In this document: piece after piece, positions 9,997 to 25,313 of the stretch | Numbering within the stretch: the stretch's first letter is position 1 | Layout of the letters: every line of letters starts with the position of its first letter | Source: Escherichia coli | GTDB lineage: Bacteria > Pseudomonadota > Gammaproteobacteria > Enterobacterales > Enterobacteriaceae | DNA length: 64,000 nt | Assembly (NCBI RefSeq): GCF_041248615.1 | Contig: NZ_CP158426.1 | Strand: one strand, 5' to 3' | Made by a program: the position numbers and the translations under genes | The notes under the pieces: model-generated | Database searches by the model: none | Told to the model about the DNA's origin: nothing | What the model saw: the letters and a program-made list of their open reading frames with translations, nothing else

Positions 9997-12846
9997 TTGA
10001 AATACCTTGCTTCTTTTCGTACAACCCTGAAAGCCTCGCGCTACATGTTCAGAGCATTGGCGTTAGTGCTCTGGCTGTTGATTGCTTTTTCATCCGTTTT
10101 TTACATCGTTAATGCGTTACATCAGCGAGAATCGGAAATTCGTCAGGAATTTAATCTGAGTTCCGATCAGGCTCAGCGCTTTATTCAACGTACCTCTGAT
10201 GTGATGAAAGAGCTGAAGTACATCGCTGAAAATCGCTTATCGGCAGAAAACGGTGTGCTTTCCCCGCGTGGACGAGAAACGCAGGCGGATGTGCCTGCGT
10301 TTGAACCGCTGTTTGCCGACTCCGATTGTTCCGCAATGAGTAACACCTGGCGAGGCTCTCTGGAGTCATTGGCGTGGTTTATGCGCTACTGGCGCGATAA
10401 TTTCTCTGCGGCTTACGATCTCAACCGGGTATTTTTAATCGGCAGCGATAACCTCTGCATGGCCAATTTCGGTCTGCGTGATATGCCAGTGGAACGCGAT
10501 ACCGCGTTGAAAGCGTTGCATGAACGCATTAATAAATATCGAAATGCACCACAAGATGATAGTGGCAGTAACCTCTACTGGATCAGCGAAGGTCCGCGCC
10601 CTGGCGTCGGGTATTTTTACGCGTTGACGCCAGTTTATCTGGCGAACCGGTTGCAGGCGCTTTTGGGTGTCGAGCAGACTATCCGGATGGAGAATTTTTT
10701 CTTACCTGGTACGTTGCCGATGGGGGTTACCATTCTTGATGAAAATGGTCATACCCTGATTTCGCTTACCGGACCAGAAAGTAAAATTAAGGGCGATCCT
10801 CGCTGGATGCAGGAACGCTCCTGGTTTGGCTATACGGAAGGGTTCCGGGAGCTGGTGCTGAAGAAAAATCTGCCACCCTCATCGCTAAGCATCGTGTATT
10901 CGGTGCCGGTTGATAAGGTGCTGGAACGCATTCGCATGTTGATCCTTAACGCAATTTTGCTGAATGTGCTTGCCGGAGCTGCATTGTTTACTCTCGCGCG
11001 GATGTACGAGCGACGTATTTTCATTCCGGCGGAAAGCGACGCCCTGCGACTGGAAGAACATGAGCAGTTTAATCGCAAGATTGTCGCCTCCGCGCCAGTG
11101 GGTATCTGCATTTTGCGTACCGCTGATGGCGTCAATATTTTAAGTAACGAACTGGCGCATACCTATCTCAATATGCTTACGCATGAGGATCGCCAACGGC
11201 TGACACAAATTATCTGTGGGCAGCAGGTCAATTTTGTTGATGTCCTGACCAGCAACAATACCAATCTGCAAATCAGCTTCGTCCATTCGCGCTATCGTAA
11301 TGAAAACGTGGCCATTTGTGTGCTGGTGGATGTTTCTTCGCGCGTGAAGATGGAAGAGTCGTTGCAGGAGATGGCACAAGCAGCGGAACAGGCGAGCCAG
11401 TCAAAATCGATGTTCCTTGCCACCGTCAGTCATGAGCTGCGAACGCCGCTGTATGGGATTATCGGTAACCTGGATCTGTTGCAAACCAAAGAGTTACCGA
11501 AAGGCGTCGATCGTCTGGTGACGGCAATGAACAACTCTTCCAGCCTGTTGTTGAAAATTATCAGCGATATTCTCGATTTCTCGAAAATTGAATCAGAACA
11601 GTTGAAGATCGAACCGCGTGAGTTTTCACCGCGTGAAGTGATGAACCACATCACCGCCAACTATTTACCGCTGGTGGTACGCAAGCAGTTAGGCTTGTAC
11701 TGCTTTATTGAACCGGATGTGCCAGTGGCCTTAAATGGCGACCCAATGCGTTTACAGCAGGTCATCTCCAACCTGTTGAGTAACGCCATAAAATTCACCG
11801 ATACCGGCTGTATAGTTTTGCATGTTCGCGCTGATGGCGATTATCTCTCTATCCGTGTTCGCGATACCGGCGTGGGGATTCCGGCGAAAGAAGTCGTGCG
11901 CTTGTTTGATCCCTTCTTCCAGGTCGGAACGGGCGTACAGCGTAACTTCCAGGGGACCGGTCTGGGTCTGGCGATTTGTGAAAAACTGATCAGCATGATG
12001 GACGGCGATATCTCGGTAGATTCAGAACCGGGAATGGGCAGCCAGTTTACCGTGCGTATTCCGTTGTACGGCGCTCAGTACCCGCAGAAAAAAGGCGTGG
12101 AAGGGTTGAGTGGTAAACGCTGCTGGCTGGCGGTCCGCAATGCGTCGCTCTGTCAGTTCCTGGAAACCAGTTTGCAGCGCAGCGGCATCGTCGTTACAAC
12201 ATACGAAGGGCAGGAATCGACTCCCGAAGATGTGTTAATCACTGACGAGGTAGTGAGTAAAAAATGGCAGGGCAGAGCGGTAGTGACCTTCTGTCGTCGC
12301 CATATTGGTATTCCGCTGGAGAAAGCGCCAGGGGAGTGGGTACACAGTGTGGCTGCCCCGCATGAGCTACCGGCATTGTTGGCGCGTATTTATTTGATCG
12401 AGATGGAGAGCGACAATCCTGCTAACGCTCTGCCGTTAACGGACAAAGCGGTCAGCGATAATGACGATATGATGATTCTGGTCGTGGATGATCATCCGAT
12501 TAACCGACGTCTGCTGGCAGATCAGTTGGGATCGTTGGGTTATCAATGTAAAACCGCGAATGATGGCGTCGATGCGCTTAATGTACTTAGCAAGAATCAT
12601 ATTGATATCGTGCTTAGCGACGTCAACATGCCAAATATGGATGGTTACCGCTTGACGCAACGCATTCGTCAGTTGGGACTGACGTTGCCGGTAATCGGAG
12701 TAACTGCTAATGCGTTGGCTGAAGAGAAGCAGCGGTGTCTGGAGTCCGGTATGGACAGCTGCCTGTCGAAGCCGGTAACGCTGGATGTGATAAAACAGAC
12801 GCTGACGGTATATGCCGAGAGGGTCAGGAAATCGCGGGAATCGTAG
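9997..12846 (+). CDS. rcsC: Hybrid sensor kinase RcsC
   Basis: 949-aa ORF with N-terminal membrane/periplasmic region, HisKA/HATPase and C-terminal receiver. Confidence 0.97.
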   Translation: MKYLASFRTTLKASRYMFRALALVLWLLIAFSSVFYIVNALHQRESEIRQEFNLSSDQAQRFIQRTSDVMKELKYIAENRLSAENGVLSPRGRETQADVPAFEPLFADSDCSAMSNTWRGSLESLAWFMRYWRDNFSAAYDLNRVFLIGSDNLCMANFGLRDMPVERDTALKALHERINKYRNAPQDDSGSNLYWISEGPRPGVGYFYALTPVYLANRLQALLGVEQTIRMENFFLPGTLPMGVTILDENGHTLISLTGPESKIKGDPRWMQERSWFGYTEGFRELVLKKNLPPSSLSIVYSVPVDKVLERIRMLILNAILLNVLAGAALFTLARMYERRIFIPAESDALRLEEHEQFNRKIVASAPVGICILRTADGVNILSNELAHTYLNMLTHEDRQRLTQIICGQQVNFVDVLTSNNTNLQISFVHSRYRNENVAICVLVDVSSRVKMEESLQEMAQAAEQASQSKSMFLATVSHELRTPLYGIIGNLDLLQTKELPKGVDRLVTAMNNSSSLLLKIISDILDFSKIESEQLKIEPREFSPREVMNHITANYLPLVVRKQLGLYCFIEPDVPVALNGDPMRLQQVISNLLSNAIKFTDTGCIVLHVRADGDYLSIRVRDTGVGIPAKEVVRLFDPFFQVGTGVQRNFQGTGLGLAICEKLISMMDGDISVDSEPGMGSQFTVRIPLYGAQYPQKKGVEGLSGKRCWLAVRNASLCQFLETSLQRSGIVVTTYEGQESTPEDVLITDEVVSKKWQGRAVVTFCRRHIGIPLEKAPGEWVHSVAAPHELPALLARIYLIEMESDNPANALPLTDKAVSDNDDMMILVVDDHPINRRLLADQLGSLGYQCKTANDGVDALNVLSKNHIDIVLSDVNMPNMDGYRLTQRIRQLGLTLPVIGVTANALAEEKQRCLESGMDSCLSKPVTLDVIKQTLTVYAERVRKSRES

Positions 12847-12847
12847 G

Positions 12848-12928
12848 ACGGATAAGGCGTTTACGCCGCATCTGGCATTCAGTGCAAATGCCAGATGCGG
12901 CGCTAACGCGTCTTATCTGGCCTACAGG
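12848..12928. repeat. REP (repetitive extragenic palindrome) pair between convergent rcsC and rcsB
   Basis: gccgcatctggca ... tgccagatgcggc inverted units with the typical REP consensus. Confidence 0.8.
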
Positions 12929-12931
12929 TGA

Positions 12932-13582
12932 TTAGTCTTTATCTGCCGGACTTAAGGTCACAGAAGAGAGATAATTCAGCAGAGCAATATCGTTCTCGAC
13001 ACCCAGCTTCATCATCGCAGATTTCTTCTGGCTACTGATGGTTTTAATACTGCGGTTCAGCTTTTTAGCGATCTCGGTCACCAGGAAGCCTTCCGCAAAC
13101 AGGCGCAGAACTTCACTCTCTTTTGGCGAGAGACGCTTGTCACCGTAACCACCAGCACTGATTTTTTCCAACAGGCGAGAAACGCTTTCCGGGGTAAATT
13201 TCTTCCCTTTCTGCAGCGCGGCGAGAGCTTTCGGCAGATCGGTCGGTGCACCTTGTTTCAGCACGATCCCTTCGATATCCAGATCCAATACCGCACTAAG
13301 AATCGCCGGGTTGTTGTTCATGGTCAGAACGATGATCGACAGGCTTGGGAAATGGCGCTTGATGTACTTGATTAAGGTAATGCCATCGCCGTACTTATCG
13401 CCAGGCATGGAGAGATCGGTAATCAACACATGCGCATCCAGTTTCGGCAGGTTGTTGATCAGTGCTGTAGAGTCTTCAAATTCGCCGACAACATTCACCC
13501 ACTCAATTTGCTCAAGTGATTTGCGAATACCGAACAAGACTATCGGATGGTCATCGGCAATAATTACGTTCATATTGTTCAT
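12932..13582 (-). CDS. rcsB: Response regulator RcsB (LuxR/FixJ family)
   Basis: Start set at MNNMNVIIADDHPIV (216 aa); upstream in-frame extension ignored. Confidence 0.97.
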   Translation of the reverse strand: MNNMNVIIADDHPIVLFGIRKSLEQIEWVNVVGEFEDSTALINNLPKLDAHVLITDLSMPGDKYGDGITLIKYIKRHFPSLSIIVLTMNNNPAILSAVLDLDIEGIVLKQGAPTDLPKALAALQKGKKFTPESVSRLLEKISAGGYGDKRLSPKESEVLRLFAEGFLVTEIAKKLNRSIKTISSQKKSAMMKLGVENDIALLNYLSSVTLSPADKD

Positions 13583-16582: not shown

Positions 16583-16675
16583 AAAAAAAACCGGATGCGA
16601 GGCATCCGGTTGAAATAGGGGTAAACAGACATTCAGAAATGAATGACGGTAATAAATAAAGTTAATGATGATAGC
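16583..16675 (-). ncRNA. micF: MicF antisense sRNA
   Basis: Reverse complement matches recalled micF (GCTATCATCATTAACTTTATTTATTACCGTCATTCATTTCTGAATGTCTGTTTACCCC...), ending in a terminator hairpin and U-run; divergent from ompC. Confidence 0.9.
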
Positions 16676-16820
16676 GGGAGTTATTCTAGTTGCGAGTGAA
16701 GGTTTTGTTTTGACATTCAGTGCTGTCAAATACTTAAGAATAAGTTATTGATTTTAACCTTGAATTATTATTGCTTGATGTTAGGTGCTTATTTCGCCAT
16801 TCCGCAATAATCTTAAAAAG

Positions 16821-23016: not shown

Positions 23017-24675
<1,659 letters not shown>

Positions 24676-24679
24676 TGAT

Positions 24680-24812
24680 GTGCCACATCCGGCATGGTAT
24701 GCCGGATGTGGCGTATGCAGATAAGACGCGTCAGCGTCGCATCAGGCAACCGGCTCGGGCGTTGGATGTCGGATGCGGCGTGACCGCCTTATCCGGCCTA
24801 CGGGGTGGAGCA
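24680..24812. repeat. REP/BIME cluster between convergent mqo and eco
   Basis: Several gccggatg / cggatgcggcg / ccttatccggcctac units in alternating orientation. Confidence 0.8.
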
Positions 24813-24824
24813 CTTCACGGCAGT

Positions 24825-25313
24825 TTAGCGGACTACCGCGTTGTCAATTTTCTCTTCCGCCTTCCAGACGCGGTACTTCACATCCACATTGTCTGGCGTA
24901 TACACCACGATCGGCAGCTTGCTGTTGTAACGCAGCATTCCAGCATCGCCCAGATATGCGGTGACAAATTTCTTCTCTTTCTTGCCATCCGGGCAGGCCA
25001 TCATCGTGGAAACCGGCGAGCTAACTTTATCAAAGACATAATAATCATAGCCCCAGCCTTCCAGCGTTTTGCTTTCCAGCTTCCCGCCGAGACGATGCAA
25101 ATTGCAATCGACTTCCAGCGTCTGGCCGATTAACAGTTCTACTTTCAGGGTAGATTCATCTTCTTGCGGGGTTAACTGAATCACCTGACGCTTCATGCCT
25201 TTTTCAGCTTGTGGATAAGGCGCGATTTTTTCCAGTGGCTGGACGCTTTCCGCCGCCCAGGCGGAAGTGGTGGCGAAAGCGGCAAACAATACTGCAGGTA
25301 GAATGGTCTTCAT
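24825..25313 (-). CDS. eco: Ecotin, periplasmic serine protease inhibitor
   Basis: Start set at [20 protein letters not shown] (162 aa), not the upstream in-frame Met. Confidence 0.95.

Follow-up and report, generated by a model that had tools for sequence, protein, structure and literature searches.

REP elements at three convergent gene junctions of an Escherichia coli chromosome

The window analysed here, a 64-kb stretch (64,000 nucleotides) of an Escherichia coli chromosome, contains ordinary chromosomal REPs with a probable role at mRNA 3′ ends: one Y/Z2 pair at each of two convergent junctions, rcsC/rcsB and mqo/eco, which correspond to REP162 and REP161 of K-12, and a single Y unit at a third, yejK/rplY. 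All three elements are long-catalogued REPs, and only the strain-to-strain differences in copy number are new. REPs are imperfect palindromes of 30–40 nt that carry a GTAG foot and fall into types y, z1 and z2 (PMC3333891). BIME-1 elements consist of z1 and y units with a long L linker that often contains an IHF site, and BIME-2 elements consist of z2 and y units with a short linker, in tandem and with a copy number that varies among strains (PMC3333891). In K-12, the rcsB:rcsC element is named REP162 and the eco:mqo element REP161 (bioRxiv 10.64898/2026.03.23.713779 supplement).

Results

REP units in the window

The REP content of the window amounts to five full units and one half-REP palindrome, all of them within three convergent gaps (rcsC+/rcsB−, mqo+/eco−, yejK+/rplY−). 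The elements, together with the terminator beside the third, are as follows.

12843–12877, − strand: Y-type REP at rcsC/rcsB, reading TGCCAGATGCGGCGTAAACGCCTTATCCGTCCTAC on the − strand; consensus with 2 mismatches, HMM E=1.4e-11; first hairpin of the Rfam naRNA4 match
12878–12888, no strand: 11-nt head-to-head linker of the rcs pair, TTCAGTGCAAA; from sequence reading and folds
12889–12925, + strand: Z2-type REP at rcsC/rcsB, TGCCAGATGCGGCGCTAACGCGTCTTATCTGGCCTAC; HMM E=2.8e-11; second hairpin of the naRNA4 match
24682–24712, no strand: perfect 14-bp palindrome with a 3-nt loop at mqo/eco, its arms being halves of the REP "head"; HMM half-matches
24713–24748, − strand: Z2-type REP at mqo/eco with a degenerate foot; HMM E=1.5e-8; naRNA4 alignment on the − strand, 51.4 bits
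24749–24766, no strand: 18-nt head-to-head linker of the mqo/eco pair; from sequence reading
24767–24801, + strand: Y-type REP at mqo/eco, TGTCGGATGCGGCGTGACCGCCTTATCCGGCCTAC; consensus with 1 mismatch, HMM E=9.2e-11
45166–45200, + strand: lone Y-type REP at yejK/rplY; consensus with 3 mismatches, HMM E=5.2e-11
45243–45270, no strand: bidirectional intrinsic terminator AAAAAACCCCGCCGGAGCGGGGTTTTTT between the yejK REP and rplY; folds and a − strand terminator scan

A preliminary description of this DNA had placed REP units of one family at these three junctions and had named alignment to the REP consensus as the check that could refute this. All three loci align, with matches to both the consensus and a profile HMM. 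The 34-nt consensus, allowing up to 3 mismatches, gives one match per junction and none in 100 shuffles (3 against 0 expected). The HMM, built from 14 REP units at the same loci (five from the window and nine from K-12), returns five full-length units in the 64 kb with E values of 1e-11 to 1.5e-8; the window's own five units score by construction, and the informative part is the absence of other matches. Beyond these five, the HMM finds in the 64 kb only their opposite-strand images and the half-REP arms at 24681–24715, which match model positions 1–16 and 1–14 on opposite strands. Further REPs elsewhere in the window are ruled out by both regular-expression and HMM searches. At the level of the genome the family is abundant, with a REP-containing query matching 28 places in the median E. 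coli genome.

The units are imperfect palindromes of 35–37 nt, which fits the 30–40-nt definition, and they are extragenic except for a 4-nt overlap of the rcs Y unit with the end of rcsC at its stop codon. The GTAG/CTAC foot is intact in three units (GTAG at 12843–12846, CTAC at 12922–12925 and at 24798–24801) and lost in two, where 24713–24716 reads GTAT, with one base missing, and 45197–45200 reads CTGC, likewise in K-12. Judged by sequence, these two foot-less units are decayed REP members that otherwise match over their full length.

Some particulars of the preliminary description need adjustment. The rcs element, given there as 12848–12928, spans 12843–12925. The quoted 5′ string GCCAGATGCGGCG occurs exactly, three times. 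For the 3′ string given with it, CGCCTTATCTGGCCTAC, there is no exact match, only three with one mismatch; the quotation is therefore a composite. The mqo/eco element, described as a multi-unit BIME at 24680–24812, is indeed a BIME, but it extends over 24682–24801 and comprises one Z2+Y pair and the half-REP palindrome.

Class membership and the known K-12 elements

The rcs pair is arranged as Y(−), 11 nt, Z2(+) and the mqo/eco pair as Z2(−), 18 nt, Y(+), both being inverted head-to-head pairs. Because they join y and z2 units through short linkers, both are assigned to the BIME-2 class, and the yejK/rplY element is classed as a singleton Y REP. The variable tandem copy number of BIME-2 is also seen, with a single pair here at both loci and more units elsewhere.

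The K-12 sequences of the rcs, mqo/eco and yejK loci align unit for unit with the window. REP162 shares with the window its locus, units, head-to-head order and overlap with the rcsC stop codon, but consists of two tandem 114-bp units (4 REPs in a 199-bp gap) where the window has one (2 REPs in an 85-bp gap). REP161 shares its locus, the mqo-proximal palindrome and the Z2-linker-Y unit, and the 18-nt linker is conserved inside the 113-bp tandem unit of both K-12 and E. coli B. The hairpins of REP161 and REP162, including the mqo-proximal palindrome, are listed as bidirectional terminators of K-12 (bioRxiv 10.64898/2026.03.23.713779 supplement).

The window pairs resemble BIME-1 (RIP) elements in that two inverted REPs occupy an intergenic gap. 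The latter, however, combine z1 and y with a conserved long linker carrying an IHF site, whereas the window loci have no z1 unit and linkers of 11 and 18 nt. IHF binding is known for BIME-1 elements at other places in E. coli (PMC3333891), and the preliminary description had expected IHF binding at these junctions. This is a BIME-1 feature, and the IHF consensus WATCAANNNNTTR, which matches 8 places in the window, has no match in the three gaps (12847–12931, 24676–24824 and 45148–45285). With neither a z1 unit nor a long L linker, the reading of these elements as IHF-binding sites is contradicted at the sequence level and is extremely improbable.

The inverted doublets also recall REPIN/RAYT systems, in being able to form one long hairpin and, for three of the five window units, in combining a GTAG foot with a stem mismatch. 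The differences are that the other two units lack the GTAG required by TnpA_REP (PMC3333891) and that copy-number changes at the window loci take in flanking unique sequence, which suggests duplication or deletion in place and not transposition. No gene for a REP-associated transposase (Y1 transposase, RAYT/TnpA_REP) lies within the window.

The Rfam model RF02564 (naRNA4) matches 12846–12922 (+) with 71.7 bits against a gathering score of 59.5, over the full model (1–77); the mqo/eco pair (51.4 bits) and the lone yejK REP (38.4 bits) fall below threshold. Sub-threshold matches to miRNA and other sRNA families were set aside as generic hairpin or terminator matches. The naRNA4 RNA is one Y+Z2 unit of REP325 (PMC4550694), a two-hairpin unit like the rcs pair. 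REP325 lies at yjdM-yjdN, between tandem genes and with six units, whereas the window pairs lie between convergent genes. The full-length match above the gathering score would fit a role of the rcs pair as the source of an RNA resembling naRNA4, able to bind HU and to bridge DNA cruciforms. RF02564, however, models any Y+Z2 pair, so a match indicates class membership and not function; moreover, deletion or over-expression of REP325/naRNA4 leaves nucleoid size unchanged, and no stable ternary complex with naRNA4 and no long-range REP–REP contacts were found (bioRxiv 10.64898/2026.03.23.713779). That study shares an author with the 2015 naRNA4 paper, and the nucleoid role of naRNA4 is now disputed. 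Such a role for the rcs pair is thus very unlikely.

A further proposal is that the Y/Z2 pairs serve chromosome topology, as mainly strong, transcription-independent gyrase sites. Gyrase cleavage sites are, according to published work, over-represented in a subset of BIME-2 elements, mostly in Y units, and REP161 is itself a mapped gyrase target: the eco-mqo BIME-2 of K-12/W3110 contains 11 Cfx, 7 RifCfx, 2 microcin and 5 oxolinic-acid sites (PMC6379681 supplement), and 6 cuts are attributed there to Espeli & Boccard 1997. That array, however, has several Y units against one in the window strain, and most BIME-2 intervals in the same supplementary table have zero sites. These include intervals at W3110 2287344 and 2321405, which were left out of account because their assignment to the yejK and rcs loci is uncertain. 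A mainly topological role for the window pairs appears unlikely. Of the gyrase binding expected by the preliminary description, the mqo/eco locus of K-12/W3110 is the documented case.

Gene context of the three junctions

The window contains about eight convergent junctions, three of which carry REPs. In K-12, 207 of 704 convergent gaps contain a REP, and some 60% of REPs lie between convergent genes (bioRxiv 10.64898/2026.03.23.713779); the REP density across the window's convergent junctions is accordingly unremarkable. The preliminary expectation that the elements would lie in the 3′UTRs of the flanking genes agrees with this published genome-wide distribution.

The elements lie close to the ends of their flanking genes. 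On the + strand, the GTAG foot of the rcs Y unit includes the rcsC stop codon TAG (12844–12846), and the Z2 unit ends 6 nt short of the rcsB stop codon (12932–12934, − strand). The mqo-proximal palindrome begins 6 nt past the mqo stop codon (24673–24675), and 23 nt separate the mqo/eco Y unit from the eco stop codon (24825–24827, − strand). The yejK REP follows the yejK stop codon (45145–45147) after 18 nt.

This geometry bears on the idea of a translation brake, in which a REP hairpin no more than 15 nt from a stop codon would hold up the ribosome at termination and reduce the amount of protein made. Translational down-regulation has been reported for REPs at distances below 16 nt from the stop (Liang et al. 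2015, as cited in PMC12306157), and the overlap with the rcsC stop and the 6-nt distances at rcsB and mqo fall within this range. The distances at yejK (18 nt) and eco (23 nt) lie outside it. A brake of this kind, which would be compatible with a 3′-end role, is a real though minority possibility.

Downstream of yejK the order is REP, 42 nt, the bidirectional terminator at 45243–45270, and the rplY stop codon. Since this intrinsic terminator lies between the REP and rplY, the REP belongs to the 3′UTR of yejK only and is beyond the terminator of rplY. The K-12 rplY:yejK bidirectional terminator is likewise listed separately from REPs (bioRxiv 10.64898/2026.03.23.713779 supplement). Terminator scans found no intrinsic-terminator pattern (a GC-rich hairpin followed by a U tract) at rcsC/rcsB or mqo/eco, and the separate hairpin at 45243–45270 is the sole such pattern among the three junctions. 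With a canonical terminator already 42 nt downstream, the yejK REP may add little.

A perfect 16-nt palindrome, CGCCGGACGTCCGGCG, lies at 45124–45139 inside the last yejK codons, just upstream of the REP. It provides a weak second hairpin for the naRNA4 model, has one mismatch in K-12 and is probably coincidental.

Folding and conservation of the stems

As RNA, the gaps fold with energies between −55 and −79 kcal/mol, far below those of shuffles (z-scores −4.7 to −11), and the hairpin of the mqo-proximal palindrome folds with −27.8 kcal/mol on either strand. The minimum-energy fold is a long inter-REP hairpin for both the rcs and the mqo/eco pair. For the rcs pair, this hairpin, with the linker TTCAGTGCAAA as its loop, has an energy of −55.7 kcal/mol, compared with −12.2 and −20.8 for separate REP hairpins. 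Its Y head (12864–12876) and Z2 head (12890–12902) are the same 13-mer, GCCAGATGCGGCG, in the window strain, and this identity accounts for the preference for a single long hairpin. In K-12 the heads differ at two positions, unit 1 folds about 12 kcal/mol more weakly (−43.9 versus −55.7 kcal/mol), and unit 2 folds as two hairpins. The identical heads look like the product of conversion between the two arms.

In an alignment of the 14 units, 96.8% of the outer-stem cells are paired and every unit has an unpaired C/T bubble. Compensatory double changes affect three of nine stem pairs, the fourth position occurring as G-C, A-U and U-A and two others as C-G and U-A. The covariation score of these 14 units exceeds all 500 shuffles and every slid control, although the tandem copies among them are related by duplication, which inflates the counts.

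Copy number among E. coli genomes

Variation was assessed across 5,426 complete E. coli genomes. The yejK/rplY REP is nearly invariant, with the same length in 5423 of 5426 genomes and an identical sequence in K-12. Alleles of rcsC/rcsB contain one or two 114-bp units. The duplication junction is present in at least 2821 of the 5426 genomes, a lower bound set by the megablast word size, and the single-unit length occurs in 6 of 39 and 6 of 29 rows of evenly spaced ranking samples, or roughly 15–20%. On these counts the one-unit rcsC/rcsB allele is the minority form.

The mqo/eco array ranges from one to about seven 113-bp units, and the spans in other genomes correspond to 3–6 extra units. Its inter-unit junction is found in 2008–2260 of the 5426 genomes, and the one-pair allele is therefore the majority form, at about 60%. 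Rather than a long array, the window has this minimal one-pair allele, the shortest seen, against 3.9 tandem 113-bp units in K-12 and 6.9 in E. coli B. In K-12-type rows eco seemed to have diverged (66% coverage), but this is an artefact of joining repeated pieces; the eco 3′ end is about 98% identical (195/199 bases). Every E. coli allele among the sampled rows contains a REP, at each of the three loci.

The second rcs unit of K-12 opens with 19 nt that repeat, in diverged form, the end of rcsC (GAAATAATGGGAATCGTAG versus GAAATCGCGGGATTCGTAG), which therefore indicates a local tandem duplication that included coding sequence, and not REP transposition. The K-12 duplication linker was also considered as a family-wide BIME-2 motif; this is ruled out by the unrelated mqo/eco linker. 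At both loci the linker copies the locus's own flank, which again argues for local tandem duplication. That the two periods, 114 and 113 bp, are so close seems to be a coincidence.

The rcsB-rcsC gap across genera

In a comparison of one genome per species, anchored on a conserved rcsB 3′ pattern, 120 loci were found and 113 gaps delimited. In most genera (Klebsiella, Enterobacter, Pantoea, Serratia, Trabulsiella and Pseudocitrobacter), the gap measures 32–60 nt, lacks REPs and contains a plain GC-rich hairpin. The layout in Escherichia species is a head-to-head Y/Z2 pair with various internal deletions; remnants of two units persist in E. whittamii and in two divergent genomes named E. coli, which favours an origin of the one-unit rcs allele by deletion. 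Salmonella and many Citrobacter have two REPs tail to tail, opposite to the order in Escherichia. These differing layouts imply that the rcsB-rcsC junction was colonised more than once. The comparison is consistent with the rcs REPs sitting in a slot that a plain terminator hairpin holds in the REP-less genera. Creation of the RcsC C-terminus or stop codon by the REP is ruled out, as REP-less genera share ...RES* or close variants.

These data also bear on whether the elements are selfish or neutral passengers, harmless after stop codons and without host function at these loci. The layouts of the rcsB-rcsC gap (head-to-head in Escherichia, tail-to-tail in Salmonella and Citrobacter, no REP in most genera), the drift of copy number among strains and the two decayed feet would all suit such passengers. 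The yejK REP, however, is fixed in 5423 of 5426 genomes, compensatory changes keep the stems, and expression effects have been published for other REP loci (bioRxiv 10.64898/2026.03.23.713779). A purely passive existence is conceivable but rather unlikely.

The window and its surroundings

The gene order of the window is yfaQ-yfaP, atoBEADCS, rcsC/rcsB-rcsD, micF, ompC, apbE, ada-alkB, yojI, mqo/eco, nap-ccm, narP, yejO, proL, yejM-yejL, yejK/rplY and radD onwards. The window is near-identical to thousands of E. coli genomes. Its last 28 kb (36001–64000) correspond base for base to NZ_LT599825.1 (isolate NRZ14408) 1799672–1827671, and mqo/eco and yejA also match this record at 100% with the same offset. 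REP features are missing from the PGAP annotation of the source record.

Several further features were observed. The yejO gene is interrupted by IS1B (38705–39472), with a left inverted repeat at 38705–38727 and the transposase at 38760–39457; the remaining yejO (39467–41698) is annotated as an N-terminally truncated pseudogene, and yejO is intact in the close relative NZ_OW967178.1. In that genome, which is 100% identical over a 1,001-bp rcsC/rcsB query, yejO is followed by an integrase and a lambdoid-type prophage; the window has tRNA-Pro at this place, and its strain lacks the prophage. The yejA gene (53910–55724, − strand), which encodes the periplasmic binding protein of the YejABEF microcin C/peptide importer, has an in-frame stop codon at 54252–54254 ("RAMP*PSS"), given as an internal stop in the source annotation. 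The 201 bp around this stop have a match covering at least 80% in 5423 genomes, mostly at 95–99% identity. Rfam matches at the expected K-12 positions are MicF RNA (16583–16676, −), a tRNA annotated as tRNA-Pro (41803–41876, −) and the L25 ribosomal-protein leader upstream of rplY (45592–45617, −).

Discussion

The REPs at these junctions plausibly act as 3′UTR hairpins, either as terminators or as stabilisers. The steps of this role in the window strain are drawn from what has been published on REPs in general. Transcripts of each of the convergent genes would extend into the REP element, and the REP RNA would form very stable hairpins that attenuate read-through, partly via Rho, and block 3′-to-5′ exonucleases. 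The elements may thereby define and protect the mRNA 3′ ends of rcsC, rcsB, mqo, eco and yejK. At the DNA level, the Y units of BIME-2 arrays would be preferred sites of gyrase cleavage, and spread of the elements and changes in their number would come about through local tandem duplication or deletion and, in the past, through TnpA_REP (RAYT).

Deletion of REP325 shows it to be a partly Rho-dependent terminator that also protects the mRNA upstream of it, and across the genome convergent gene pairs containing REPs are more highly expressed (bioRxiv 10.64898/2026.03.23.713779). In the same work, terminal REPs showed no general difference in mRNA half-life and a large dependence on context. Stabilisation of the flanking mRNAs by the window REPs, which the preliminary description expected, may occur by extension from the family.

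It is improbable that the alleles of this strain, one-unit rcs together with one-unit mqo/eco, are functional dials rather than drift. If they were, the single 83-nt rcs hairpin could alter 3′-end formation, read-through collision or translation termination at the Rcs phosphorelay genes, and local gyrase site strength could also differ from that in K-12-type strains.

The value of these observations lies mostly in annotation. REPs are left unannotated in PGAP/RefSeq records and so appear in raw sequence as palindromes of no obvious origin; once recognised, they are not mistaken for sRNAs, terminators or novel repeats. Two findings are of mild use: the rcs variant with identical heads, which is specific to this strain, and the range of alleles at rcsC/rcsB and mqo/eco. 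With one or two units at the former locus and from one to about seven at the latter, E. coli offers a natural allele series that could be used to relate REP copy number to 3′-end formation, the expression of convergent genes and gyrase cleavage.
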